From Staphylococcus phage vB_SurM-PSU4: a DNA stretch of 64,000 bases. The stretch lies in sequence record OL436245.1. One strand, given 5' to 3'. Shown piece by piece: positions 2,782 to 28,696 of the stretch. Numbering within the stretch: position 1 is the first letter of the stretch; each line of letters begins with the position of its first letter. The notes below the pieces were generated by a model that was given only the letters and a program-made list of their open reading frames with translations, was not told where the DNA came from and searched no databases. The position numbers and the translations under genes were made by a program.

Positions 2782-3546
2782 TTAATCATCTAAAAAGAAT
2801 TCGTTATTGTCTTCATAACTTGTGTTAATGAATACAGAATCAAATTCATTTTCATTATTTTTAATGTATAAGTCTTCTAGACGTGATAGACCAATTCTCG
2901 CATATATACTTGCTTGACTATAATGGTCATCACCTTTTCTCTTGATTACTTGATACATTTCTTCTGTCTTGCTATCTTCTTCATCTCTGATGACCACATT
3001 TTGCCAATGTTTAAGAAGTATAGCTTTATCATTATCATTTTCTTGGTAAATTCTTATTCTACCTGTTTTTAAATCTTGGATATAAATTTTGTTCTGCATC
3101 AATTTATCTACAGTAACAATATTTGAATTCTCGTTAAACACAGGTTTAATTTGTCCAGTAGATTTAGGAGATGATTTGTAAGTACAACCAAACACAATAT
3201 CTTCACCGAAGTATTGTTGGAGTCTTAGTAAGTTGTTTCCTGAATCTCCTGTATCTGCTACAATAATATCTGGGTTATACTTAGAAAATTCTACACGTAT
3301 TTTTTCTATATCCGATTCAACCATGTTAGGGTTTTTATTTCGTTTAACATTAAATAACCTAATGAGGTCTATCTTACCATCTTCAGTCATTCCATGAATT
3401 GTACAATAATGAATATTACCCCAATCCACTGATGCTGCGATAAATTTATAATCCCCTCTATTAAACATTTGTTTCTTAGCAATAGGAGATTGGTTGTTGT
3501 AAATATCTTCTTGTAATACTTTCATCTTCTGGTCTTCGTATGGAAA
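2782..3546 (-). CDS. terL: Terminase large subunit, last exon (C-terminal RNaseH-like nuclease domain); exon start approximate
   Basis: The translation carries the typical TerL nuclease motifs (FIAASVDWG, IVADTGDSG). The exon start at ~3546 is inferred by analogy to other intron 3' ends in this window (ggtagtaacg|tttcc). The ORF track lists 2782-3561 from a GTG start. Confidence 0.75.
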   Translation of the reverse strand, partial: FPYEDQKMKVLQEDIYNNQSPIAKKQMFNRGDYKFIAASVDWGNIHYCTIHGMTEDGKIDLIRLFNVKRNKNPNMVESDIEKIRVEFSKYNPDIIVADTGDSGNNLLRLQQYFGEDIVFGCTYKSSPKSTGQIKPVFNENSNIVTVDKLMQNKIYIQDLKTGRIRIYQENDNDKAILLKHWQNVVIRDEEDSKTEEMYQVIKRKGDDHYSQASIYARIGLSRLEDLYIKNNENEFDSVFINTSYEDNNEFFLDD

Positions 3547-4118
3547 CGTTACTACCGTCACTTTCGTGATATTTATATACGGACTAGACTATATCATATT
3601 CCTTATTTTTGACTAAGGAATCTCTACTTTACAGGTCGTTAACCTTCTCTTATAGTTCTACCTTACCTCATTTAGTAAGTTACCTATAAACTTAGTCGTT
3701 AGGCATTTATCTACTTTGTAGAATTTAGCAATTGATTGCCCTCATCTTTACATGTTAGGGGTTTCCAATTTTAGTAGAGTTATTCGATATACATTACTGT
3801 ATAAAGGGGCTATCCCGCTAACCCAGCGTGTAGTTGTAGAACAATTGAGTTGATTCAGTATTCATTTCTTTTTCTTTTAATTCACTAGCTGAAATCCAAC
3901 ATTTTTTTGTTACGATTGAGTTCGTTATTCTCAACCTTCTATATATCGCTATATAAGTTCAGACTATATCTTTACCTTATCAAATGAGACTTAGGTATCC
4001 TCTGTTTCGTGCTACTTAGCACTACTAATTAGTCGTTGCACGTTCTCTTATTACAAGAGCTTCGCTCATGATTATCTCTAATGAGAGACTTCCCATGAAT
4101 TAAAAGGACTTCACTCTA
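3547..4118 (-). mobile_element. ORF-less group I intron region in terL containing two P7-like cores; probably two introns flanking a cryptic ~100-nt micro-exon (~3821-3922)
   Basis: Two copies of the caacgacta...gatatagtct (P7 5'/3') motif pair are present. Between them, an open frame of 35 codons (NSIVTKKCWISASELKEKEMNTESTQLFYNYTLG) begins exactly at the predicted intron end. The same arrangement is seen in the tail-tube gene. Confidence 0.5.
3821..3922 (-). CDS. terL: Candidate terL micro-exon (cryptic, <60 aa, not in ORF track)
   Basis: The frame is open only in the exon-compatible phase. It is bounded by a ...gagaataacg intron-3'-like end and a gcccctttatacag intron-5'-like sequence. Inference only. 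Confidence 0.35.
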
Positions 4119-4499
4119 TACATTTCTATATAGAGGGGCTTGGTTAACCGCATTTAGCTGTGAAATAAAATAACCTCTTGTTCCTTTTCCACCTTTAGTT
4201 CTTTCAGGATACTTACAGTGCCATTCTCCGTTATACCATCTATCTAGAAGTTTACCACATTTTTGACAAACAAATTGGTAACTTCCTTCTTGCACTGTTT
4301 TAGCCATTTCGTCAACACCTTCAGGATTGACTAATAGGATATTTCCACTCTTCTCTAAGTTATCTGGGTCATAGTCTTCATAACTCATTTCATTTAAGTA
4401 ATCACAATGTGTACATCTATGACCATAATACCATTGGTCAGATTGCATATAGAGTTTATGAATTCCCATATTTGGAGTCGTCTTCAACATTACTATTTT
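4119..4499 (-). CDS. terL: Terminase large subunit exon (approximate boundaries)
   Basis: ORF 4116-4502 translates to ...YFISQLNAV..., lying between intron-like sequences. The putative upstream intron ends in ...gagatagtccattttattatg. Confidence 0.6.
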
Positions 4500-5691
4500 C
4501 ATAATAAAATGGACTATCTCATAATCCTTAGTTTTGGTTAAGGATTCTCTGCTTTACGATTTTATAAATAACTAAAAATAACTTCTTTTATTTCTTCATC
4601 TGTATAAGTATAGGGTATTCTTAATAAATCTATATTATTTTTTTCAGCATAATTATTTTTAATATTATCTCTTCTTTGTTGGTCTTTCAATTTTTTAGCC
4701 CCACCAAAAAATTCTACAGGTTTACTATGCTGAATTCCATCATATTCTATAAGAAGGTTTTTACTAGGAATATAAAAATCAAAAGGTAAGTATTTACCTC
4801 TAACTTTTAAATCTTCATATACTTTTTGTATTTCGTAAGTAACTTTATTATCTTTTAGAACTCTCTCTACTTTTCTCTCACCCTTAGATTGTTTACAAAA
4901 AGGACATCTATTACCATTTAAAAAATCTTTAGGTGTAACATAGTAATCAGAACCACAACCTTTATGATGAACAACAACATTTGACCTATTATTAATATAC
5001 TCAGATTTTAAAATAAATTCACCCTCACCTTTTTGTAATACCTCTTTTTTAAATTCCTCAGTAGTTTTTCTTCTATTACCAAAACAATAGGGGCATCTAT
5101 TACCTCTTAAGAAATCTTTAGGTGTCATATCAAAAATATTATCACATTTGAAATGTTTTATTTTTATCTTAGTAGTGCTTCTTCTATACTTTGTTAGTTG
5201 TTGATACTCTTCTTTTGCTATTTCTTTGAATTCTTTTTCAAAAATATAAGGATTTTTTCTTGTTGTGTTACATGAACATCTTCTATTATCATAGAAAAAA
5301 TGATTGGGTGTTGTTGTGAATATCTCACCACAATCAGTATGGAAAAAATCCATATTTACGTTACCTTTTATATATTCTGATTTAACCTTGTATTCTTCCC
5401 CTACTTTATTATACAATCTTTCTTTTATATCTTCTGTAGTTACTTTTTTAGTCATTTAAATCATCCTCTTATTAATATTTTATTCAATTATAACAAATAA
5501 ATATTAATAAGTCAATGATTATTTAAAATCTTTTATCTGATTCTACCTTACTCCTTTTAGTAAGTTACTCAGAAATTTAGTCTCTAGGCATTTACAAGTA
5601 TATAACTTGATTTAGCAATTGATTGTCTACAGCATTATCTGTTTAGAGTTTCCAATTTTAACAGAGTTTTTCAAAACAAATTACTTTGTTA
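4500..5691 (-). mobile_element. Group I intron in terL carrying a homing-endonuclease ORF
   Basis: The intron begins TAACAAAG right after exon ...CGTGGGGCT, giving an in-frame UAA. It has aattggaaac/gcaatcaattgctaaat family motifs and a 3' gagatagtcc core, and the 297-aa ORF sits inside. Confidence 0.65.
4562..5455 (-). CDS. Intron-encoded homing endonuclease, triple CxxC zinc-ribbon N-terminus plus Vsr/DUF559-like PD-(D/E)XK C-terminus
   Basis: The repeat C-x3-F-x3-P-x2-F-L-x-G-N-R-C-P-x-C occurs three times. The C-terminus reads LIEYDGIQH...FFGG...QQRRDNIKNNY...LLRIPYT and is shared with the ORFs at 6065-7048 and 27740-28675. Confidence 0.65.
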   Translation of the reverse strand: MTKKVTTEDIKERLYNKVGEEYKVKSEYIKGNVNMDFFHTDCGEIFTTTPNHFFYDNRRCSCNTTRKNPYIFEKEFKEIAKEEYQQLTKYRRSTTKIKIKHFKCDNIFDMTPKDFLRGNRCPYCFGNRRKTTEEFKKEVLQKGEGEFILKSEYINNRSNVVVHHKGCGSDYYVTPKDFLNGNRCPFCKQSKGERKVERVLKDNKVTYEIQKVYEDLKVRGKYLPFDFYIPSKNLLIEYDGIQHSKPVEFFGGAKKLKDQQRRDNIKNNYAEKNNIDLLRIPYTYTDEEIKEVIFSYL

Positions 5692-5997
5692 AGCCCCACG
5701 ATTTAACATAGGGGTACTCCAACGTCTTATAACCTTGAAAGGTGAACTTGACATTGATTCCATTGCTGATGATTCTGATGATGAAGGTACTCTATCATAT
5801 TCATCCAGTGACAAATAATCAATATCCACACCTTCTAAAGCTTTAGGTGTAGAACTTGTTCTAAAGAACATACTTGAATTTCTTATTTGTTTATATTTTA
5901 ATGAGTCATTATCTTGGTTAATGATGCTTGCAAAATAAGGTTGTTGCAATGTAGGGTTTATCCTACTTTGTACGAATTTCTGCATTTGGTCACTGGT
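5692..5997 (-). CDS. terL: Terminase large subunit exon (contains IDYLSLDEYD Walker-B-like motif); boundaries approximate
   Basis: ORF 5689-6000. A hhhhDE Walker B-like motif is followed by a Ser/Thr-rich segment. The exon is followed directly by an intron starting TAACAAAG. Confidence 0.6.
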
Positions 5998-7318
5998 CAT
6001 TTTTACCCCTAGTTTCCTAGTATTTAAAGGGATTAGACTATATCATAAGAATACATTTATATATTTAAATACGGACTGTATTCTTCTCTGCTTTACTTCC
6101 TAATAAGTATTTATCTTTTAAGTCTTCTAAGTAATTTATAAGTTTTATTCCTGCTATTGTGTAAGGTATTCTAATCATCTCAATGTTATTATCTTTAGCG
6201 TACTTATTTTTTATATCATCTCTTATTTGTTGCTTTTTGAAGGCTTCTAAACCTCCAAAATATTCTATAGGTTCATAATGTTGTTTCCCATCATATTCAA
6301 TAAAAAGCCCATTCTCACCATAATCAGGTATATAAAAATCAAACTTTAAAATGTTAATATATCTACAATCCTCAAATGATTTTTGAAACTCATATATTAT
6401 ACCTTCATCTTTTAAAAATCCCGCTATTATATCTTCGCCATTAGAAATACTACTACATTGAGGGCATCCTGTTAACCTTAAAACATGATTAGGTTCAGCT
6501 TTAAAAACACATTTACACTCATTACATTGGAAAGATGTTTTAGTATGAGTATTTACATAATCACCTATCAAACTTATTTTACCTTTGTGAAAATACTCTA
6601 ATTGTTCTTGAACAACATCTATCTTCTTACGTTGAGATTCTTTAACATTTTCTATGATACATTGAGGACATACATTCTTCCTTCTTTTACTTATCATATT
6701 TATAGGTGTATTATAAAAATAAAAATCATGTACATTACATTTTAATTTTATACTTTCCGAATATCCTGTATATTCACCAATAACAGAAATATTATTATTG
6801 TACTTTTTATTTATCTCATCTTTAAACGTATCTGTTGTTTTAATTCTTTTTTGATTATCACAATAATAACATCTACTATTTCCTGTTAGGAAATTATTTG
6901 GTTTTACAGACCATTCATTACCACAAATGTTATGTTTCATAAGTATTTTATCTCTAGTTCTTGTATACTTACCAATAACTGTGTATTCATTACCTACTAA
7001 ATCATATATTTCTCGTTCAAATTCTTCTTGTGTTTTCTTTTTAGACATTCTTATCCCCCTTTCTTATCTTTTTATACTTATTAGGTTTTCTTATACTATT
7101 TTCGTTATCTCCATTCAGATAACTATTAGTAAGTTTAGTCGTTAGACATTTATCCTAACATTACTATATCATATATAAATATAGTTGTCAAGAATTTAGT
7201 ACGGTAGGTTCCCACTATCTGTGTATAGTCAGAGTTAGGGTTTCTTACCAGTATATTGTTTATCTATACATTATTTTACTATGCCCGTTTAACAGAGTTT
7301 TAGTTCCCCACTCTGTTA
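5998..7318 (-). mobile_element. Group I intron in terL carrying a homing-endonuclease ORF
   Basis: The intron starts TAACAGAG directly after the exon codon ...ATGAAA. Its 3' end reads gatatagtctaatccctttaaatactaggaaactaggggtaaaaatg, and the 327-aa ORF sits inside. Confidence 0.65.
6065..7048 (-). CDS. Intron-encoded homing endonuclease (CxxC zinc-ribbon repeats plus Vsr/DUF559-like nuclease motif), paralog of 4562-5455
   Basis: Several CxxC/CPxC zinc-ribbon modules are followed by the C-terminus FIEYDGKQHYEPIEYFGG...QQIRDDIKNKY...MIRIPYT. Confidence 0.65.
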   Translation of the reverse strand: MSKKKTQEEFEREIYDLVGNEYTVIGKYTRTRDKILMKHNICGNEWSVKPNNFLTGNSRCYYCDNQKRIKTTDTFKDEINKKYNNNISVIGEYTGYSESIKLKCNVHDFYFYNTPINMISKRRKNVCPQCIIENVKESQRKKIDVVQEQLEYFHKGKISLIGDYVNTHTKTSFQCNECKCVFKAEPNHVLRLTGCPQCSSISNGEDIIAGFLKDEGIIYEFQKSFEDCRYINILKFDFYIPDYGENGLFIEYDGKQHYEPIEYFGGLEAFKKQQIRDDIKNKYAKDNNIEMIRIPYTIAGIKLINYLEDLKDKYLLGSKAEKNTVRI

Positions 7319-7473
7319 TTTCATAGGGAACGTGAACATACACTTGACAGAATCTTTACTATGTGTATCTGCAAAATGCAACATCTTATTGTATCCAACT
7401 TCACTTAATCCAAGTTGTCTCGATTTAAGTACTGCTATGTTAGGGTGTTTATCATTTATTATGGCAATCTGCC
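7319..7473 (-). CDS. terL: Candidate cryptic terL exon (~51 aa) with Walker-A-like SRQLGLS motif; not in ORF track
   Basis: The minus-strand translation is GQIAIINDKHPNIAVLKSRQLGLSEVGYNKMLHFADTHSKDSVKCMFTFPMK. It is flanked upstream by an intron 3'-end motif (...ctaggggtataaaacg) and downstream by TAACAGAG. SRQLG resembles the T4 gp17-type Walker A region. Confidence 0.45.
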
Positions 7474-7734
7474 CGTTTTATACCCCTAGTTTCCTAGTAT
7501 TTAAAGGGTTTGGACTATCTCATAGTTACTAATTTAGGTAAGTAACCCTCTTCTGTTACTTCTCTTAAAAAGAGCTTTCTTATACTGTTCTACACTCAAC
7601 CATTTATGAGCTTACCAGTAATTTTAGTCTCTAGGCATTTATGACTTATTAAGCCAATTTAGCAATTGATTGTCCTCGTCTTTACGTTAGGAGTTTCCAA
7701 TTTTAAGAAGAGTTTAAAGACCACAGCAAATTTA
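7474..7734 (-). mobile_element. ORF-less group I intron in terL (between exon 1 and the cryptic exon)
   Basis: It contains the same family motifs as the other terL introns (aattggaaactcctaacgtaaagacgaggacaatcaattgctaaatt ... gagatagtccaaaccctttaaatactaggaaactaggggtataaaacg). Confidence 0.5.
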
Positions 7735-7935
7735 TGGTCTATGAGCTTGAGCTTTACTTTTATCTCTATTTGGTATAGAAAAAGTAATATTATGCCCACG
7801 AATTAAATTGTGTTTCAACATATAAGCAGTAGTACTAGACATTGTTAATACATAATCTAATTGTTCTTGGGTAACATTTGTAGTTCCATATGTGGATATG
7901 AGTAAGTCTTTTAATTGTTTTCCATCCATTTTCAT
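7735..7935 (-). CDS. terL: Terminase large subunit, first exon (N-terminus); 3' boundary approximate
   Basis: The ATG at 7935 directly follows the stop of the upstream gene. The ORF closes at 7732 with TAA, and TAAATTTGC resembles the UAAC-type intron starts seen elsewhere in the gene. Confidence 0.5.
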
Positions 7936-7937
7936 AA

Positions 7938-8408
7938 TTAAAATGTCTCCGCATTTTGTTTATTCATAAGCTTCTCTTTTTCTGTAACCATTTCTGCTAC
8001 CTCATCGGCAGTCATTTCAGATAACTTATCTAAGTCCACATATTCATTTCCGTCTTCATCTACTTCACCTGTAGTTTCAACGAAGTTACTTAGTACAGCA
8101 CGTTCTTTTTCTCCTAATGCAGGTAGCGTACCCATACCACCTGAAGAGTTACCATTCATTTCACTAATTTGTCCGTACATGACTAATAATTTATAGATGT
8201 CGTTTGTGTCGTTTACATTGATTTCTCCACGCTCGACTTTATCTTCTAGTTTAATCATAAGTTTTTGTATGACACTTAAAAAACCATTGGATATAGCTTC
8301 ATTAGCATCTTCATTCTCTCGCTTTTTTTGCTTGAGTTGGTTTCTCATCGTATCTACTCTTGACTTCAAAAGTAAATCACTCCTCTTTCTTGTATTTATA
8401 ACAATCAC
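7938..8408 (-). CDS. Hypothetical acidic protein immediately upstream of terL (candidate terminase small subunit, unproven)
   Basis: 156-aa ORF with a basic N-terminus and acidic C-terminus. Only its position relative to terL suggests a packaging role. Confidence 0.4.
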   Translation of the reverse strand: MIVINTRKRSDLLLKSRVDTMRNQLKQKKRENEDANEAISNGFLSVIQKLMIKLEDKVERGEINVNDTNDIYKLLVMYGQISEMNGNSSGGMGTLPALGEKERAVLSNFVETTGEVDEDGNEYVDLDKLSEMTADEVAEMVTEKEKLMNKQNAETF

Positions 8409-10151: not shown

Positions 10152-10355
10152 ATGATAGAGATAACTATGATTAGCGGAAAGATATATTATAAAAAAATGG
10201 AACAAAGTACAGAGAGAAGTAATGTAGGAGATATGCAAAAACTAATGTCAGGTAAGGGTAATGCTGTAGAAGCATACAGCACTGAAAGTTTTAACCAAGA
10301 AGATAAAGTATTTCTAAGTCCTTTTAATATTGAATCATTCCGTATTATCTTGTAA
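10152..10355 (+). CDS. Hypothetical small protein
   Basis: 67-aa ORF with an AGGAGA RBS. Confidence 0.4.
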   Translation: MIEITMISGKIYYKKMEQSTERSNVGDMQKLMSGKGNAVEAYSTESFNQEDKVFLSPFNIESFRIIL

Positions 10356-10373
10356 TATGTTAAGTAAGTAAGT

Positions 10374-10403
10374 AAGGGTAATTAAGTTTACCCTTATTTT
10401 TTT
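10374..10403 (+). terminator. Rho-independent terminator
   Basis: aagggtaa-ttaag-ttaccctt hairpin followed by a T-run. Confidence 0.6.
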
Positions 10404-10471
10404 ATATATTTTTACTTGCTAGAGAGAAAAAAGTATGATATAGTGTGAATATATAGAAAAATATAGTTAAT

Positions 10472-10500
10472 TTGATTTTACAAATTAGTAAAAGTATGAT
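10472..10500 (+). promoter_or_regulatory. Sigma-A-like promoter (TTGATT-17-TATGAT) reading into the ORF-less region
   Basis: The -35 element TTGATT is at 10472-10477 and the -10 element TATGAT at 10495-10500, with 17-nt spacing. A similar aaaagtatgatata element lies ~50 nt upstream. Confidence 0.45.
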
Positions 10501-11326
10501 ATACTATATTTAGTTAGAAATACATAACAATTAAATAAAGAGCTGATGAGTACACATAATGGTGAGATGTGTAGGAATAGCGACATTGAGGAAGTTAAAT
10601 CGGAGCTTCGAGCATCACCATGAAAATTCGATGGGTATATATGTAAATAAATAGTACAATGGTGCATATATTTCCAGATTTGGTGATGACTACCAATGTA
10701 CTAAAAAGGTCAGGGAGGTTTCTTGTTGTGCTTTGCACAGGGGAGCCTTGTTCCCATATACAGACTTCACGAGGGGCGGTAGCTATCCCCTCTTTAAACA
10801 TTATAACTAAAGGCTAAACGAAGTAGTATAGGTTGTTAGGACAAGAATTAACGTAAAACAAGGTTAGCACTAGACCGTAATCTATACATATTTTATACAC
10901 TATGATTATATCTTTCTAGTTACAATTCTGTTGTACCTAGGGGATAAGTCTACCCGTAATGCTACGCAAACCTAAACCAATAAAACACAAAACAAATAAC
11001 CTAAATAATTAATAACTTATTATTTACTGTAGACTTATCTAATAACTAAATAAATTAAATAATAAATATATAGACTTAAAAAAGAGAATAAGATATATAA
11101 CAAATTAGAGAGTATATAGAAAGTAACTAAATAATATATACAGTAAAATAAATAAATATACATAATATATAATTAAACTTAAAAGTATATAAATATATTA
11201 ATTTAAGTAAGTGATTGTAGTGAAGAATTAGAGCGAATCTTTATAACTTAATTATATACATATACATACATAAATATTTAGATATACTGGATAAATTAAT
11301 TTAGTATATATTTTTTTATATAAGTG

Positions 11327-11355
11327 TTGACATATTACGATTTATAAGATATAGT
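11327..11355 (+). promoter_or_regulatory. Strong sigma-A-like promoter (TTGACA-17-TATAGT)
   Basis: Consensus -35 element TTGACA at 11327-11332 and -10 element at 11350-11355, in an AT-rich tract. Confidence 0.5.
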
Positions 11356-11396
11356 TAAACTATACTAATTATTCAAGATATTAATTAAAAAAGTTA

Positions 11397-11425
11397 TTGA
11401 CAAACACTAATCAATATATTATAAT
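11397..11425 (+). promoter_or_regulatory. Strong sigma-A-like promoter (TTGACA-17-TATAAT) for the 11465 gene
   Basis: Perfect consensus -35 (11397-11402) and -10 (11420-11425) hexamers ~40 nt upstream of the RBS/ATG. Confidence 0.55.
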
Positions 11426-11464
11426 TAGATATATAAAATAAATTAAAGAAAAGGAAATGATAAT

Positions 11465-11674
11465 ATGAAAAAACAAGTAATGGTTTATAGTAAATTAGAA
11501 TGTCAAGAATGCGGAACTGATTTAAGTATTCCTAGAAAAAGAGCTAAGAAAAGAAGTGAAGGACACATTAAACATATGTATTGTCCTACATGCCAATCAA
11601 CAACAGGATTTGTAGAAACAAATAAAGATAAGTCATATGATTTTTGGGAACAATGGCAAGCACAATTTAACTAA
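11465..11674 (+). CDS. Small zinc-ribbon protein (CQEC...CPTC)
   Basis: 69-aa ORF with two CxxC pairs, driven by consensus early-type promoters. Confidence 0.5.
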   Translation: MKKQVMVYSKLECQECGTDLSIPRKRAKKRSEGHIKHMYCPTCQSTTGFVETNKDKSYDFWEQWQAQFN

Positions 11675-11991: not shown

Positions 11992-12139
11992 TTTTGTAGA
12001 AATGGACTTATGTGTTATAATGTACTTAAGTAGTTGATATACACTACTTAAACCACATACCCACCCTAAGTTCAGAGGGATTAAGTTCTCTCTGTTCATA
12101 CATAAATATTAGTGTATTGAAAGCACTTGTTATAATGAC

Positions 12140-12310
12140 TGAATAATGGTTTGGTATCCATAAGGTATAAGATAATCAAACGAACTAAAACTTATCGGAG
12201 ACATAATGCTCCACTAGTAGGTAACTTACTGGAAGGAGCTACAATTGTAATCGGTAGGATGAGTCGTCATTAGTATTGTTTAATACGATTGGTATACTTG
12301 GTACTTGATT
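12140..12310 (+). pseudogene. Decayed fragment of an endolysin SH3b cell-wall-binding domain
   Basis: The stretch 12205-12249 (aatgctccactagtaggtaacttactggaaggagctacaattgta) is ~80% identical to the lysin gene at ~15735-15780 (aatgctccagtaggaggtaacttaccagcaggggctacaattgta). The translation NAPLVGNLLEGATIV matches [15 protein letters not shown] and is followed by a stop. Weaker similarity extends upstream. Confidence 0.5.
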
Positions 12311-13424
12311 ATAAGGACTGTAGAGTATGATAACAGCTAGAGTTTAACTTCTTCTTAGGGTCTTAGCGGAATCCTATGAAGATACGCTATAACGACTTCT
12401 TGTAGTTGGAGCACAGAAATGTGTTTGATAATAGAGGTTATCAGTACAAGTAGCATAAATCTACATTTCAAAAGATATATTTGGTAAATATAAAAGTGAA
12501 ACCAAATAAATTATTTCTTCAACCATGTGAACGTTACTAACTATTATGTTAGTATCACATTATCCTTTTGGATTGCGTGAGATGGACTTAAGGTAGCTCC
12601 TTAATAGAGTCAATCGTAGTGATTCACTTAATAACAGGTCTTATAATCAGGTTCTCGGTGAGACGAGTTATAACAAGTGCTTTGATTACATTAGTAATCT
12701 AATAACAATAATTCCTTCGTTTTATTCCTTACATTTTTTATTGTTATATTAAGTCTTAGGTATATGAAAAGATATTGTAGTTATCAAAATTTAAATCATA
12801 TAAATCCTCCTTTCCCTTTGTTTTTTTGTATAGATTCATTCTACAGACAAATCGAAGTAATATACCTATAAACCCACTTTAAATAATTAGTATGGATGAA
12901 TAGTGGGCTCCATACTATACATAAACATTTTAACATATGACTGTTTTTTTAGACCTTACCCTGTTTTCCAGTATAAAACAATAACTAATGGTAAGGGTAT
13001 ATTTGAAATTTAGACTTTTCATTAAGTCTTTCCGTTCGTGAAAAATGATTGAGGGTTTTGAGAGTTCCCCTTGGCTAACAATAACTCTCTTTATATCCCT
13101 TAATTGTGTAAAACATGAGAGATACCATGTCATTAGGGAGTTTCGGCTGGTAACTTCTTCCAGTCCAGTATCTAAATAGCTTATGGTGAGCGTATACGTC
13201 AGAAAAGACGTTAAAAACTTAGGATGACATTGACTGAGTAGGAATAATATGTTACTCGATTTCCCCACACGAGTATAAATAAGCATTGGGGAGCATACAT
13301 AATAGTAATTGATATTGCCCCTGTTTCAATCTTTATCAATTCTTTTTTACATATATTAAAAGGATAAAATTATATGAATGTATAGGAAATTACATATAAC
13401 TTATCTGATGAGAGGGGATTTAAT

Positions 13425-13661
13425 ATGGATAAACAATTACCTAAGTTTAGTATATTTAAAGTAACTAAATATAAAAAAGTTTCTGATATTCAAGTAGATA
13501 ACTCGAAAGAAGAAGGAAATGTTTCTATATCAAAAGAAGAATATTACTTTAGCACTAAAGAATTAGCACAGAAATATATTAGTCAATATAAATATGTAAT
13601 TAATATTGATTGTAAATTAAAAGAAATAAAAGTGAATGAGGAAGTTATTTTAAATGGCTAG
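13425..13661 (+). CDS. Hypothetical protein
   Basis: 78-aa ORF with an AGAGGGG RBS. Confidence 0.45.
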   Translation: MDKQLPKFSIFKVTKYKKVSDIQVDNSKEEGNVSISKEEYYFSTKELAQKYISQYKYVINIDCKLKEIKVNEEVILNG

Positions 13662-13839
13662 TTATAAACAAACTAACTATGTAAATAGTTTAATTGTAAA
13701 AGGTTTAATGGAAGATAAAATTAAAGACAAACAAGACTTATTAGATAAGTTAGAAATCCTTGATGGGGTTAGTTTATCAGATTTTGATACAAAAGAGACT
13801 TCCGATATTATTAAAAAATTAAATACAATAGTAGAATAA
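13654..13839 (+). CDS. Hypothetical small protein
   Basis: 61-aa ORF whose start overlaps the upstream stop. Confidence 0.4.
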   Translation: MASYKQTNYVNSLIVKGLMEDKIKDKQDLLDKLEILDGVSLSDFDTKETSDIIKKLNTIVE

Positions 13840-13851
13840 AATTGCTATATT

Positions 13852-13890
13852 ATCCATTGAAGATTAAAAGTCTTTGATGGATTTTTTTAT
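13852..13890 (+). terminator. Rho-independent terminator upstream of lysis cassette
   Basis: 12-bp stem (atccattgaaga/tctttgatggat, 2 G-U pairs) followed by TTTTTTT. Confidence 0.5.
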
Positions 13891-13914
13891 ATAATATTAT
13901 AGGAGTGATAGATA

Positions 13915-14436
13915 GTGTCAAAAGATACTAACCAGAAAAAACCTAAAGTATTTTTAGGTCAAAACTTATCTACACGTGTACGTAGTCCTTATTTTTGGAC
14001 AGGTGTTGTAGGTATTTTAGGTAGTGCAGTTGTATCATTCGGTGGATTAATAGGTGTAGACTTATCAGCTCAAGTAGATAATGTCACAGCTAACTCAAGT
14101 AAAATTATTGAGTTTATTTTCTTAATCCTTGGATTGTTAGGTGTTTCAGTAGACCCTAATAGTAAAGGTAGAAAAGATAGTGAGATTGTGAGAACTAGTT
14201 ACAAAAAACCTAGAAATGATAAAGACCCTAACGAATTTGTTCAATGGCAAGAAAATGCAAAACAAACAAGTGCTTTTGAGATAGACGAATACGAAAACAA
14301 TGCAGAGCCTGATACAGATGATAGTGATGAAGTACTTGCTATCGAAGATGAGATTGATGGGGGCTCAGCACCTTCTCAAGAGGAAGAAGATACTGAGGAA
14401 CATGGTAAAGTATTTGCAGAGGATGAAGTTAAGTAA
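13915..14436 (+). CDS. Holin
   Basis: 173-aa protein with two predicted TM helices and a charged C-terminus. It starts at GTG with an AGGAGTG RBS and ends overlapping the endolysin start (ATGA). Confidence 0.7.
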
Positions 14437-15923
14437 TGACTAAGACTCAAGCAGAAATAAATAAACGTTTAGATGCTTACGCAAAAGGAACAGTAGATAG
14501 CCCTTATAGAGTTAAGAAAGCAACAAGTTATGACCCTAGTTTTGGTGTTATGGAAGCAGGAGCTATTGATGTAGATAAATATTACCACGCTCAATGTCAA
14601 GACCTTATTACAGACTATGTATTATGGCTAACAGATAATAAAGTTAGAACTTGGGGTAATGCTAAAGACCAAATCAAACAAAGTTACGGTACTGGATTTA
14701 AAATACACCAAAATAAACCTTCTACAGTACCTAAAAAAGGTTGGATTGCAGTATTTACAGGTGGTAGTTATTCACAGTGGGGTCATATAGGTATTGTATA
14801 TGATGGAGGTAATACTTCAACATTTACTATTTTAGAGCAAAACTGGAACGGTTACGCTAATAAAAAACCTACAAAACGTGTAGATAATTATTACGGATTA
14901 ACTCATTTCATCGAAATACCTTTAAAAGCAGGAACTACTGTTAAAAAAGAAACAGCTAAGAAAAGTGCAAGTAAAACACCCGAACCTAAAAAGAAAGCAA
15001 CATTAAAAGTTTCTAAGAATCATATTAACTATACAATGGCTAAACGTGGTAAAAAACCTGAAGGCATGGTAATACACAACGATGCGGGTCGTTCTTCAGG
15101 ACAACAATATGAGAATTCATTAGCTAAAGCAGGTTATGCTAGGTATGCTAATGGTATTGCTCATTACTACGGTTCTGAAGGTTATATATGGGAAGCAATA
15201 GATGCTAAGAATCAAATTGCTTGGCACACAGGTGATGGAACAGGAGCAAACTCAGGTAACTTTAGATTTGCAGGTATTGAAGTCTGTCAATCAATGAGTG
15301 CTAGTGATGCTCAATTCCTTAAAAATGAACAAGCAGTATTCCAATTTACAGCAGAAAAATTTAAAGAGTGGGGTATTACGCCTAACCGTAAAAGTGTAAG
15401 ATTACACATGGAATTCGTTCCTACTGCGTGCCCTCACCGTTCAATGGTTCTTCATACAGGATTTAATCCAGTAACTCAAGGAAGACCATCACAAGCAATA
15501 ATGAATAAACTAAAAGATTATTTCATTAAACAAATTAAAAACTACATGGATAAAGGCACTTCAAGTTCTACTGTAGTTAAAAAAGGTAAAACAAGTAGTG
15601 CAAGTACACCAGCAACTAGACCAGTTGTAGGTTCTTGGAAAAAGAACCAGTACGGAACTTGGTATAAACCAGAAAATGCAACATTTGTTAATGGTAACCA
15701 ACCTATAGTAACTAGAATAGGTTCTCCATTCTTAAATGCTCCAGTAGGAGGTAACTTACCAGCAGGGGCTACAATTGTATATGACGAAGTTTGTATCCAA
15801 GCAGGTCATATTTGGATAGGTTATAATGCTTATAACGGTAACAGAGTATATTGCCCTGTTAGAACATGTCAAGGTGTTCCACCAAACCATATACCAGGAG
15901 TTGCCTGGGGTGTATTTAAATAG
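14436..15923 (+). CDS. Endolysin, LysK-like: N-terminal CHAP, central amidase_2 (N-acetylmuramoyl-L-alanine amidase) and C-terminal SH3b cell-wall-binding regions
   Basis: 495-aa ORF whose regions were assigned by eye: a CHAP-like segment ([12 protein letters not shown] ... SQWGHIGIV), an amidase_2-like segment (MVIHNDAG...[11 protein letters not shown]) and an SH3b-like C-terminus. The length and order match phage K LysK. No intron is evident. Confidence 0.9.
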
Positions 15924-26646: not shown

Positions 26647-26974
26647 ATGGCAAGTGAAGCTAAACAAAGTATTCACACTGGTAATACCGTCTATCTAATG
26701 GTTAAGGGTAAAATTGTAGGCAGAGCTCAATCAGCTTCAGGTACACGTGAATACGGTACTGAGGGCGTATATGAAATTGGTTCTATCATGCCACAAGAAC
26801 ACGTTTACCTTAGATACGAAGGTACAGTGACAATAGAAAGATTACGAATGAAAAAAGAAAACTTTGCAAAATTAGGATATGCTTCTTTAGGTGAAGAAAT
26901 CCTTAAAAAAGATGTTATCGATATTTTAGTTGTAGATAACTTAACTAAGAGTGTAATCATAGCGTATCATGGTT
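26647..26974 (+). CDS. Tail tube protein, exon 1
   Basis: MASEAKQSIHTGNTVYLMVKGKIVGRAQSASG... matches what I recall of the Twort-like tail tube. The unspliced ORF stops at 26985 after only 112 aa, and the exon is predicted to end at ...CATGGTT. Confidence 0.7.
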
Positions 26975-27275
26975 TAACTAAATAGACCCCTTGTACAGTG
27001 ATGTGCATTGAATAATACTTTAAATTGCTAGAACACCGTAAAGCTAACTTAACCACATAGGAATTGGAAACGATAAACTAGAAGGTCAGGAAACTAGAAA
27101 AAATAAGTTAGATGGTATATGGTTAAAACCTAAGTACTAATTAATCGGAAATTAGCATCGAAGCTCCTGTAAAATGGAGAACGTTCAACGACTATAATAA
27201 GTGAGTCTTAGTTACAATAAGATTATGGAATAGTCTAGTCCGTATATAAATATTGCGAAAGCAACGGTAGAATCG
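26975..27275 (+). mobile_element. ORF-less group I intron 1 in tail-tube gene
   Basis: It begins TAACTAAATAGACCCC like the terL introns. It contains gagaacgttcaacgactataa (P7 5') and ggaatagtctagtccgtatataaat (P7 3'), and ends ...ggtagaatcG. Exon 1 + exon 2 then read YHG-C-SANNY in frame. Confidence 0.65.
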
Positions 27276-27352
27276 GTTCAGCGAATAACTATGATGAAGA
27301 GATAAACACGAACGAAATGATAACTGAGAGCATAGAGTTTTCTTATCTTACA
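27276..27352 (+). CDS. Tail tube protein, micro-exon 2 (encodes CSANNYDEEINTNEMITESIEFSYLT)
   Basis: The frame is open only in the phase created by splicing from 26974. The peptide matches my recollection of the phage K tail tube C-terminal region. The exact 3' end is ambiguous within ~3 nt. Confidence 0.6.
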
Positions 27353-27616
27353 GCATTAAATTTCTAGTGCCCTTATACAGTAATGTATATTGAATAAATC
27401 CTCTAATTCAGGGAAACCCTAAACGAAATTAAGACGTAGGCAATCCTGAGCTAAGCCTGTAACATACAGGAAAGTGCAACGACTATCTCTACGGAGAGTA
27501 CGCTCAAGTGAGTGGAAATGGGGATTATCCTATAAAGTATAGGATAGTGATATAGTCTGGACATATATGGAAACATATAGAAGGTTAGGAGTAACGAACC
27601 TAATCGTAACACAATC
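27353..27616 (+). mobile_element. ORF-less group I intron 2 in tail-tube gene (or non-spliced 3' intron relic)
   Basis: gcccttatacagtaatgtatattgaataa...ggaaaccctaa...ggcaatc...gtgcaacgactat...gatatagtctgg is closely similar to the 3' half of terL intron 3. If spliced, the C-terminus becomes ...YLTADKAS*. If not, the protein ends ...YLTALNF* at 27367. Confidence 0.5.
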
Positions 27617-27634
27617 GCAGATAAAGCATCATAA
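27617..27634 (+). CDS. Tail tube protein, putative terminal mini-exon 3 (ADKAS-stop)
   Basis: gca gat aaa gca tca taa lies immediately upstream of a strong terminator. It matches the recalled K-like C-terminus ...SDKARQ. Inference. Confidence 0.4.
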   Translation, partial: ADKAS

Positions 27635-27648
27635 TAATTTAGTATACT

Positions 27649-27688
27649 TAAACCCAACTTTTATTGTTGGGTTTATTTTTTTTTAATT
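27649..27688 (+). terminator. Rho-independent terminator after tail-tube gene
   Basis: aaacccaac-ttttatt-gttgggttt hairpin followed by T11. Confidence 0.7.
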
Positions 27689-27689
27689 T

Positions 27690-27725
27690 GCTTTATCAGA
27701 AGCAGTATGTTATAATATAAATATA
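27690..27725 (+). promoter_or_regulatory. Promoter of the free-standing homing endonuclease gene (TTGCTT ... TGTTATAAT)
   Basis: A -35-like TTGCTT and an extended -10 TGtTATAAT are followed by an AAGGAGA RBS and the ATG at 27740. Confidence 0.5.
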
Positions 27726-27739
27726 AGGAGATGATATAA

Positions 27740-28675
27740 ATGAAACAAACAAACCAATTTACATTTAATAAAAAAGAAAGTCAGAAGATATGGGAAGAAT
27801 GGTGTATCAATCAGGGGTTAAAACCTTTAGTTACATATGAGAAATCTCAACAACCTTTTTATTTTGAATTTACTTCAGGTAAATTTAAAGGATTAGTAGG
27901 TAAAACATATTGGGCTAGTATAAAAAGAGGTTCAATAATGAGATTGAGTTGCTTAACAGAAGAGAGTAAAAATAAATATATTAAAGAATTAGGTAAAAGT
28001 AAAGGAATAGAAATTATAGAAGACTATAAAGGAGGTAGAAAAATAAAGCATAAGTTTATTTCAATAGATGGAAAATACAAAGGGTGTGAGGGACAAGTAA
28101 CCTTAAATGACTTAGAGAATATGAAATCTATAGATAATAGAAGTTTAACAATTAAAGGTAAAAAACAATATTTTGATTATAAAGCGAAACAAAGAGATTG
28201 TACAATACTAGAATATCCAGAAAATTATAATATAAAAACCAATGAAAAACTAATAGTAGAAGATAACAAAGGATTAAAACATGAGATAATAGTCCAAGAC
28301 TTTTTTGAGAAAAACTCTATATTAGAAGTTTCAAATTTTAGTGAAGGAGAAAAAATAGTTAAAGAAATACTTATAGAAAGAGGTATTGATTTTATCAAAG
28401 AGAAAGGATTTAAAAATAGTAAAGGTATAACACAGAGGTTTGACTTTTATATAGAATTAGGAGAAGAATTATTTGTAATAGAGTATAATGGTTCACAACA
28501 TTATAAAAAAGCAACGGGATACTTTAAAGATACATTAGAAAAAACTCAAAAAAGAGATGAGTTGAAAAGAGAATATTGTAAAAGAAATAATATATATCTT
28601 TTGGAAATACCTTATACTATTAAAGATAAAGAAAGTATAGACAAAGAGATAAAAGAATTTTTAGACCTAGATTAA
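27740..28675 (+). CDS. Free-standing homing endonuclease (zinc-ribbon repeats plus Vsr/DUF559-like nuclease motif), paralog of the two terL intron ORFs
   Basis: 311-aa protein with the C-terminus FVIEYNGSQHYKKATGYF...QKRDELKREYC...YLLEIPYT, very similar to the C-termini of 4562-5455 and 6065-7048. It has its own promoter and terminator. Confidence 0.65.
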   Translation: MKQTNQFTFNKKESQKIWEEWCINQGLKPLVTYEKSQQPFYFEFTSGKFKGLVGKTYWASIKRGSIMRLSCLTEESKNKYIKELGKSKGIEIIEDYKGGRKIKHKFISIDGKYKGCEGQVTLNDLENMKSIDNRSLTIKGKKQYFDYKAKQRDCTILEYPENYNIKTNEKLIVEDNKGLKHEIIVQDFFEKNSILEVSNFSEGEKIVKEILIERGIDFIKEKGFKNSKGITQRFDFYIELGEELFVIEYNGSQHYKKATGYFKDTLEKTQKRDELKREYCKRNNIYLLEIPYTIKDKESIDKEIKEFLDLD

Positions 28676-28696
28676 TTTCTAGGTCTTTTTTTTTAT
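28663..28696 (+). terminator. Rho-independent terminator after endonuclease gene
   Basis: agacctag-attaatttct-aggtct hairpin spanning the stop, followed by T9. Confidence 0.65.

Follow-up and report, generated by a model that had tools for sequence, protein, structure and literature searches.

Seven probable group IA2 introns in the terL and tail-tube genes of Staphylococcus phage vB_SurM-PSU4 point to two old intron lineages

We analyzed a window of 64,000 nt from Staphylococcus phage vB_SurM-PSU4 (sequence record OL436245.1), in which the terminase gene terL and the tail-tube gene are interrupted by seven introns, numbered I1 to I5 in terL and TT_I1 and TT_I2 in the tail-tube gene. All seven are well supported as homologous group I introns, probably of subgroup IA2. 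They probably stem from two old lineages of that subgroup, both of them represented in terL and in the tail-tube gene. Homing with Vsr-like endonucleases would have kept them there, with introns now and then reaching new sites and swapping modules; this reading follows from tree groupings that mix the two genes and from the nesting of the T4 nrdB intron with TT_I2. Judged by sequence comparison, movement between sites and genes appears to belong to the past of the phage group as a whole and not to that of this particular genome. A first-pass annotation of the window had instead proposed that one intron family spread within the genome into both genes. The kinship it recognized is confirmed, since all seven introns are homologous and each tail-tube intron has relatives in terL; the single lineage and an intragenomic or recent spread are not supported by the results below.

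The intron boundaries were obtained by restoring both proteins. Six colinear terL exons were delimited by tblastn with the TerL proteins of Staphylococcus phage vB_SauM_JDF86, Staphylococcus phage BE04 and Listeria phage WIL-1, and splice sites were placed so that each 5' exon closes with U and each intron with G. Excision of the five introns yielded a single open frame encoding a 605-aa TerL, with insertions after codons 67, 117, 213, 325 and 351. The exons so reconstructed lie on the minus strand at 7734..7935 (exon 1, codons 1–67 plus the first base of W68), 7325..7473 (exon 2), 5710..5997 (exon 3), 4147..4481 (exon 4), 3821..3899 (exon 5, 26 codons) and 2782..3546 (exon 6, through the stop codon). 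Excision of the two tail-tube introns, inserted at codons 111 and 137, yielded a 141-aa protein ending in SDKAS. Its exons lie on the plus strand at 26647..26974 (exon 1, from splice reconstruction and comparison with relatives), 27276..27356 (exon 2, 27 codons, from splice reconstruction and comparison with JDF86) and 27618..27634 (exon 3, SDKAS plus stop, the Twort equivalent being cagataaagcttcacgatag). In the JDF86 tail-tube gene, which retains TT_I2, TT_I1 is missing and its two flanking exons meet at the very junction predicted (GC followed by SANNY); the insertion sites of I1, I2, I4, I5 and TT_I1 are all empty in JDF86. The interval 3547–7734 given in the first-pass annotation, which spoke of six or seven intron cores, runs from the last base of I5 exactly to the last base of terL exon 1. 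Seven is the correct number, but the two tail-tube introns lie outside this interval, at 26975–27275 and 27357–27617.

Two features of the splice junctions were invariant: an exon-final U and an intron-final G were found in 7/7 introns of the window and in 31/31 introns of the collected set. P1 consists of 3–7 contiguous pairs and matches the U of the 5' exon to a G in the internal guide sequence. P1, P3, P4, P5, P7, P8 and P9 are fully complementary in all seven introns, with sequences that differ from one intron to another (P5 was not assigned in I2), and P6a was assigned in six of the seven, I2 being the exception. Base-pair counts were made on lineage-specific alignments and not on the 31-intron MAFFT alignment, which is misaligned, with P5 and P6a mis-anchored. 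For the lineage designated Y, an alignment of I4, TT_I2, the site-295 intron of phage RSM-J51Sa, Twort I2 and I3 and the ORF-deleted T4 td and nrdB introns (ORF, open reading frame) covered 64 pairs, including the P3/P7 pseudoknot; 92.3% of cells were paired, compared with 77.5% in shuffles and 33–46% with slid partners, and 38 of the 64 pairs showed compensatory changes, a number reached by 0/500 shuffles. For the lineage designated X, an alignment of I5, I1, TT_I1 and four relatives covered 48 pairs, of which 87.8% of cells were paired (76.5% in shuffles) and 23 pairs showed compensatory changes, again reached by 0/500 shuffles. Within lineage X, the P9 hairpin covaries at 4/4 pairs and the outer P7 pair covaries between A-U and G-C. 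The P7.1/P7.2 region between P7 and P3', by which subgroup IA2 is recognized together with sequence kinship to T4 td and nrdB, is variable: TT_I2 has both helices, I4 has one hairpin, I1 and I5 have long inserts, and TT_I1 has nothing before P3'. An nhmmer search with a window profile matched T4 nrdB at 2e-10 and td at 6e-9, and a search with an eight-intron profile detected no copies in the window beyond the seven.

Comparison with the Rfam group I family RF00028, whose gathering score is 50 bits, gave a result that depended on the length scanned. Scans of the whole 64-kb window, at gathering scores and then at E up to 10, reported no group I intron. This miss is a speed-filter artefact, because scans of short stretches (300–4300 bases), where the filters are laxer, gave scores of up to 95.5 bits. 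TT_I2 and I4 scored above the gathering score, and I5, I1 and TT_I1 scored below it with significant E values. Only a 3' fragment of I3 was matched (22.6 bits) and I2 gave no match, because their ORFs split these two introns.

Phylogenetic relationships were examined with neighbour-joining (NJ) trees of the joined 5' and 3' domains, the 5' domain being taken from the intron start to the P7 5' strand. The trees were built from a MAFFT alignment of 154–219 columns at four gap thresholds, with 200 bootstraps; terL insertion sites are named by the codon of the window TerL. One group (X) comprised terL sites 67, 73, 89, 117, 182, 213, 300 and 351 together with TT_I1, with support of 49–78%. The other (Y) comprised TT_I2, Twort orf142-I2 and orf142-I3 and T4 nrdB at 88–94%, with sites 295 and 325 joining at 59–75%. 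Sister introns at different sites were recovered for 295 and 325 (100%), 67 and 182 (92–98%) and 117 and 300 (81–94%). A split placing the T4 introns apart from all Staphylococcus and Listeria phage introns, as a single lineage would predict, appeared in only 1–3% of bootstraps. The two groups also differ in architecture. Lineage X, which appears to include I1, I2, I3, I5 and TT_I1, is characterized by a closed-stem P9, a GAAA-capped hairpin and a short tail, and Vsr-like endonuclease genes are associated with it. Lineage Y, which appears to include I4 and TT_I2 and to be of the Twort orf142/T4 nrdB type, has a P9 hairpin and a second 3' helix, labelled P9.1.

All strings quoted in the first-pass annotation as shared between introns were found at the places given for them, and sharing of long blocks beyond chance was upheld: among the seven cores, blastn-short matches ranged from E 2e-6 to 3e-14. 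These included I1/I2 (44 nt, 93%, E 3e-14), I1/I5 (52 nt, 90%, E 2e-12), TT_I1/I5 (41 nt, 90%, E 5e-10), TT_I2/I5 (25 nt, 96%, E 1e-7) and TT_I2/I4 (63 nt, 82.5%, E 2e-6). The first quoted block (block 1) lies on the minus strand at 3770..3722 in I5 and at 7702..7656 in I1, with a tail-tube variant at 27412–27457; the 18-mer GCAATCAATTGCTAAATT, allowing up to 3 mismatches, occurs three times against 0.18 expected. The second, the P7 3' strand, was said to be present in all introns. Its exact form GATATAGTCT is found in four of the seven (I2, I4, I5 and TT_I2), and the other three carry variants, GAGATAGTCC in I1 and I3 and GGAATAGTCT in TT_I1; this 10-mer is not enriched in the window (8 matches against 9.0 expected, up to 1 mismatch). 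The third is a pair of 27-mers in the P9 tail, at 27249–27275 in TT_I1 and 3573..3547 in I5, which match at 21 of 27 positions.

Not all of this similarity is specific. The P7 strands ataaatgcctaacgacta and gatatagtctg(g) are identical in the T4 td and nrdB introns. The RF00028 consensus contains the quoted motifs GAUAUAGUCU, AGACUA, AAUUGCGGGAAA and GGUAAUCC..GCCAA, reading AAUUGCGGgAAA, GguAAuCCGCAGCCAA, AGACUA and GAUAUAGUCu. Block 1 is thus a generic bridge from terL to the tail-tube gene. Two of the three quoted blocks, block 1 as such a bridge and the P7 strand, reflect group I consensus, but consensus does not account for the P9 tail of I5 and TT_I1 or for the P4–P6 block common to I1 and I5, both of which are subtype-specific. 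Identity of the P9 tail is 90% between I1 and I2 and 85% between I5 and TT_I1, and that of the 52-nt P4–P6 block is 90% between I1 and I5. Differences between the P9 hairpins of I5 and TT_I1 are compensatory (UCAC/GUGA versus UUGC/GCAA). These modules are not confined to this genome. The tail common to I5 and TT_I1 also occurs at site 351 in other phages. An I5-type tail is present at 92–95% identity at terL sites 89 and 300 of Golestan101-M/RSM-J51Sa and at 80% in Listeria phage WIL-1, and because of this wider occurrence the TT_I1 tail is unlikely to have been copied from I5 within this genome.

The same observations bear on an explanation in which ribozyme function alone dictates a generic group I or IA2 consensus and the introns have no kinship of their own beyond the subgroup. 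The P7 strands shared with T4 td and nrdB, the presence of most quoted motifs in the Rfam consensus and an overall identity to T4 about as high as that between paralogues are all what it predicts. Set against it are non-core peripheral elements that are 85–95% alike across sites (the I1/I2 tail, the I1/I5 P4–P6 block and the P9 tail common to TT_I1 and sites 351, 89 and 300), sister pairs at different sites with 81–100% bootstrap support, and the different P9 architecture of the T4 introns. We therefore consider it very unlikely as a full account.

Closeness of relatives bears on the case for recent duplication or transposition of one lineage within this genome into terL and the tail-tube gene. 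Blocks of 41–63 nt at 82–93% identity that link introns of different sites, some of them across the two genes, the similar P9 tails of I5/TT_I1 and I1/I2 and the G-C variant of the outer P7 pair common to I1 and I3 speak for such an event. The window paralogues, however, are only 39–71% identical in the 5' domain and 49–78% in the 3' domain, no closer than they are to T4 td and nrdB (41–65% and 43–66%, respectively). Same-site orthologues are 85–100% identical, and all introns but I2 have a much closer relative in another phage (85–99.6%), mostly at the same site or, for TT_I2, in the same gene. Together with the non-monophyly of the seven, T4 nrdB nesting with TT_I2, and the occurrence of the I5-type tail in other phages, this leaves the recent single-lineage duplication largely refuted, and we regard it as very unlikely.

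That the inserts are not introns, and represent decayed or fragmented genes, other mobile DNA or assembly artefacts, deserves practically no credence, although related phages are annotated with the pieces as individual genes and one publication treats the terminase as two separate subunits (PMC11951804): both proteins are restored exactly in frame, Rfam matches reach 95 bits and covariation extends across 64 and 48 base pairs. Splicing also has a precedent, since the homologous Twort orf142 introns reportedly splice.

Mosaic structures give further evidence of exchange between introns. The core of I2 is sister to the site-300 intron of Golestan101-M, and the 3' end of the endonuclease gene and P8 are also common to both. 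After the P7 3' strand, I2 carries an I1-type tail, with 90% identity to I1 as against 65% to site 300, and I1 is its neighbour 150 nt upstream. At site 213, the intron of JDF86 has a P2 of UAUACA-GUAA-UGUAUA, the I5/TT_I2 type, in contrast to the AACAAA-GUAA-UUUGUU of BS1 (Staphylococcus phage phiSA_BS1), RSM-J51Sa and the window, the introns being otherwise 93–99% identical. These mosaics agree with the exchange of domains among T4 introns, through recombination at conserved stretches of the core, that Bryk and Belfort are said to have described in 1990.

Several points weigh against two old lineages as we have drawn them. The trees are built on 154–219 columns of a MAFFT alignment with NJ distances, the comparison covers about 30 introns from 10 phages, and support is only 49–78% for lineage X with TT_I1 included and only 59–75% for lineage Y with sites 295 and 325 included. 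Shared peripheral architecture could also pull T4 nrdB towards TT_I2. Three introns (I5, I1 and TT_I1) fall under the RF00028 gathering score of 50, and I2 and I3 are not scorable whole. Splicing at the predicted junctions is deduced from sequence, and the fit of each guide sequence to its own exon is modestly better than to foreign exons (mean 4.9 versus 2.9 bp), the own exon being best or tied in 8/17 cases. Finally, the free-standing endonuclease gene downstream of the tail-tube gene does not track the introns: Romulus has TT_I1 without it, and JDF86 has TT_I2 without it.

The five terL introns, all on the minus strand, differ in size and content. I1 (7474..7733, 260 nt) has no ORF and no P2, and it matches RF00028 over its full length at 35.4 bits (E 1.1e-7). 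Its P1 pairs exon GACCAU with GUGGUC, its outer P7 pair is G-C, and it is 96–98% identical to the same-site introns of Golestan101-M and RSM-J51Sa. I2 (5998..7324, 1327 nt, codon 117) has an extended P5 region and contains a homing endonuclease gene (HEG), whose ORF (7048..6065, 327 aa) extends through P3' into the P8 loop; a promoter-like TTGACA-17-TATAGT lies at 7191..7163. Neither I2 nor its endonuclease has a close orthologue in the phage collection, the best matches being partial at 66–78%. I3 (4482..5709, 1228 nt, codon 213) contains a HEG ORF at 5455..4562 (297 aa), with a promoter-like TTGACT-17-TATAAT at 5515..5487. I4 (3900..4146, 247 nt) has no ORF and is of the orf142/nrdB type, with covariation and an RF00028 score of 90.8 bits (E 4.1e-23); it is 99.6% identical to the Golestan101-M copy, the next relatives being terL introns of Stau2 and DNA helicase introns of Silviavirus at 78%. 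I5 (3547..3820, 274 nt) has no ORF and scores 48.8 bits (E 1.6e-10), with covariation, and its site (351) holds HEG-bearing versions in RSM-J51Sa and BE04.

The tail-tube introns, both on the plus strand, have relatives across genera. TT_I1 (26975..27275, 301 nt, within codon 111; RF00028 33.2 bits, E 6.2e-7) has a P5-loop insertion of about 97 nt (intron positions ~70–166) and ends in a terL-type P9 tail; P7.1 and P7.2 are missing. It is 99% identical in Golestan101-M and RSM-J51Sa, and full-length orthologues at 85–87% are found in the tail-tube genes of Silviavirus, Kayvirus and Sepunavirus phages, among them Romulus, phiIPLA-RODI and BE25. The P5-loop insertion, which contains AATTGGAAAC and a P7-like string, was considered as a decayed nested intron of the terL type; this was dropped because local alignment against I5, I1, I3 and the BS1 site-182 intron gave z values of 0.3–1.8 relative to shuffles, and the 10-mer is there by chance. 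TT_I2 (27357..27617, 261 nt, within codon 137; RF00028 95.5 bits, E 1.2e-25, with covariation) occupies the site of Twort orf142-I3. Its 5' and 3' domains are 87% and 85% identical to Twort orf142-I2 and 77% and 88% identical to orf142-I3. A longer TT_I2, with the endonuclease gene inside it and the 3' splice site beyond, was rejected: in JDF86, where the gene is missing, the intron ends alike and is followed by the same last exon, which Twort has too.

The distribution of introns among relatives was then compared. Besides the window (67, 117, 213, 325 and 351), terL introns occupy sites 67, 89, 300, 325 and 351 in Golestan101-M; 67, 89, 213, 295 and 351 in RSM-J51Sa; 182, 213 and 295 in BS1; 182 and 213 in JDF86; 73 and 351 in BE04; 89 in Listeria phage WIL-1; 71, 89 and 300 in Twort; and 71, 89, 117, 175 and 560 in Romulus. 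At least 12 terL sites are thus occupied across the compared phages, and a terL with five introns is not unique to this phage, but the combination 67/117/213/325/351 was absent from every record searched. Tail-tube introns lie at 111 and 137 in the window, at 116, 130 and 137 in Twort and at 111 and ~134 in Romulus and phiIPLA-RODI, so that at least 5 tail-tube sites are occupied. Intron sets differ even among phages whose TerL exon segments are 86–100% identical at the protein level. Both lineages appear to circulate in a pool common to Twortvirinae and related Herelleviridae.

Three paralogous endonucleases are predicted in the window, of 327 aa in I2, 297 aa in I3 and 311 aa in the free-standing gene. 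They are 27–36% identical and share the C-terminal motif FDFYI..IEY(D/N)GxQH..RD..K. All three match phrog_559 (the I2 HEG at 2.7e-78), a VSR-type family found in terL introns of Bastillevirinae (PMC11878797); matches to Pfam are limited to weak zinc-finger and DUF2726 hits, and no match to a solved structure was found. Every HEG-bearing intron in the collected set encodes a member of the phrog_559 family, with 31–62% identity between sites. The two best promoter-like sites of the terL region (11/12, with TG) are those just upstream of the I2 and I3 ORFs. I2 and I3 qualify as candidate mobile introns by their predicted intact endonuclease ORFs and by their presence or absence among close relatives.

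Gain and loss of such genes can apparently be seen in the collected introns. I3 corresponds to the ORF-less site-213 intron of BS1 (flanks 98.9% and 100%) plus a clean 967-nt cassette that replaces 4 nt. Two ORF-less introns, at site 351 of Golestan101-M (6408–6721 of the extract) and site 73 of BE04 (1018–1367 of the extract), carry a consensus TTGACA-N17-TATAAT in the P6 loop, a promoter with no gene that looks like the footprint of a lost endonuclease gene. The I3 cassette and the geneless promoters would then be snapshots of endonuclease gain and loss.

The free-standing HEG (27740..28675, plus strand, 311 aa) has the tail-tube stop codon on its upstream side and the native terminator (28663–28686) on its downstream side. 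A terminator-like hairpin at 27649..27675 on the plus strand, just after the tail-tube stop, marks the 5' edge of the HEG cassette (27636–28690), which is precisely absent from JDF86. The gene product is 39% identical to Twort ORF018, encoded at the same position, and is a distant orthologue of it. A free-standing endonuclease adjoining an ORF-less intron reportedly supports collaborative (trans) homing, as Zeng, Bonocora and Shub are said to have described in 2009. The arrangement here is similar, with the HEG about 120 nt downstream of a gene with two ORF-less introns and a cassette that is present or absent in relatives. It differs in that the HEG does not strictly co-occur with either tail-tube intron, so that collaborative homing, a process that has been reviewed (PMC3984707), is for these introns a guess by analogy, a resemblance in which adjacency is known from sequence.

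The sequence comparisons show the boundaries, the covarying core structure, the two lineages, the presence or absence of introns among close relatives and the mosaics; splicing activity, endonuclease activity and routes of movement are inferred from established group I biology, as follows. After transcription, each ribozyme would fold into P1–P9 with the P3/P7 pseudoknot and bind guanosine; cleavage would follow the exon U paired to the guide-sequence G, and the exons would be joined after the terminal G, giving mRNAs for the 605-aa TerL and the 141-aa tail-tube protein. During co-infection, homing by double-strand break repair may be driven by the promoter-equipped I2 and I3 endonucleases and perhaps by the free-standing one, and co-conversion through the short exons (78–339 nt) may bring ORF-less neighbours with it. 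Rare moves would be to new sites whose last 3–4 exon bases fit the guide sequence, and modules would be swapped when paralogous introns undergo homologous recombination at their universally conserved core. The 5' exons of related introns at different sites tend to end alike: in GCAU before Twort I2, Twort I3 and TT_I2; in GGU at sites 295 and 325; in GGGU at site 351, at WIL-1 site 89 and before T4 td; and in GGAU at sites 89 and 182. This fits guide-sequence-directed insertion, with weak statistical support.

A bolder extension, which we hold to be doubtful, would make terL of the Baoshanvirus group an active arena of ectopic group I movement, in which two IA2 lineages at no fewer than 12 terL and 5 tail-tube sites spread by reverse-splicing-like insertion and exchange modules at the invariant P7 strands. 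If this were true, crosses of near-identical phages with different intron sets would make ectopic transposition directly testable; according to reviews, direct evidence for ectopic intron transposition is still lacking (PMC3984707).

The nearest records to the terL region are those of phages phiSA_BS1 and JDF86, at ~94% nucleotide identity, and because the inserts differ, no single record covers more than 54% of the query. The phage appears to be a Baoshanvirus-like member of Twortvirinae (Herelleviridae). The terS–terL block, on the minus strand (8408..2782), diverges from the portal, head and tail genes, which lie on the plus strand from ~13915. In Twort (NC_007021), terL and portal are co-directional, and the matched Baoshanvirus records share the relative orientation of the window; the divergent terS–terL orientation looks like a genus-level rearrangement. 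Downstream of terL, a minus-strand ORF of 438 aa (400–1716) encodes long Pro/Gln/Glu-rich tandem repeats (EQSQEQQT, PMVPLEPAI) and an acidic tail, in the same position as Twort ORF029 and the Silviavirus orf10 protein, which has a variable number of PIEPEK repeats. Long ORFs are scarce or missing in the regions 10355–11465 and 12000–13900, where neither a tRNA nor an Rfam match (E up to 1) was found; a tRNA search of the whole window was also negative. A weak match to the Staphylococcus small RNA S808 at 15479–15741 on the plus strand (27.7 bits, E 0.007, the gathering score being 76) falls within a 495-aa ORF (14436–15923) and is probably due to chance.

In the public annotation of related phages the terL exons appear as individual genes, and the paper on Golestan101-M, the closest five-intron relative, describes the terminase as two separate subunits ('two separate TLS') with introns unmentioned (PMC11951804). 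The annotated tail-tube coding sequence (CDS) of JDF86 runs into TT_I2 and ends in LTALNF (648–1067 of the extract compared); for this reason it was rejected as an intron-less reference. That of Golestan101-M ends in YHGLTK inside TT_I1 (648–986 of the extract compared).

Comparison with known systems places these introns in a familiar setting. Landthaler and Shub reportedly showed in PNAS in 1999 that three related IA2 introns of Twort orf142 self-splice, and a crystal structure of the Twort ribozyme is said to have been reported by Golden et al. in 2005. The window resembles orf142 in the gene itself, in TT_I2 at the Twort I3 site, in ORF-less introns of subgroup IA2, in a nuclease gene just downstream and in the presence of several related introns in one short late gene. 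It differs in having two introns and not three, with Twort sites 116 and 130 empty, and in TT_I1, which lies at a site unused by Twort (codon 111) and belongs to the other lineage. Twort orf142 encodes the tail-tube protein, and introns of Twortvirinae have been called well documented (PMC11878797). The T4 td and nrdB introns share the subgroup, a secondary structure with covariation and identical P7 strands, and nrdB groups with TT_I2. The T4 endonuclease ORFs, however, lie in P6a, are of the GIY-YIG or HNH type and sit in genes of nucleotide metabolism, whereas those of the window follow the P7 5' strand, are Vsr-like and sit among introns of packaging and tail genes.

Split terL genes are also known elsewhere, reportedly in Romulus and Remus since Vandersteegen in 2013, and they have been described in Silviavirus (PMC7497331). 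As in the window, terL of the Silviavirus phages Romulus, Remus and KSAP7 and of Twort carries several group I introns, some with endonuclease genes; Romulus has five terL introns, shares site 117 and has a TT_I1 orthologue in its tail-tube gene. The site combination of the window and I2 with its endonuclease are not matched there. In Bastillevirinae, according to Weglewska et al., NAR 2025 (PMC11878797), terL has two or three introns per gene of heterogeneous IA2 type. The endonuclease family and the host gene are the same and there are multiple introns per gene, in another subfamily with other hosts; the quoted split-gene list has no tail-tube gene.

What is new here is the site combination and the site-117 intron with its endonuclease; related Twort introns and a five-intron terL were already on record. 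As regards annotation, terL and the tail-tube gene are intact in this phage and its relatives and are listed publicly as fragments or read into introns. For method, negative whole-genome group I scans in AT-rich phages should not be trusted, the default 64-kb Rfam scan having missed 7/7 introns. As for the biology, nothing overturns what has been known since the Twort work. The genus does offer close phages, with TerL exon segments 86–100% identical, that have no more than one to three terL introns in common out of as many as five. Because these close phages differ in their introns and show clean cassette gain and loss and clear mosaics, the genus is a convenient natural system in which to measure homing, co-conversion, intron loss and movement to new sites.

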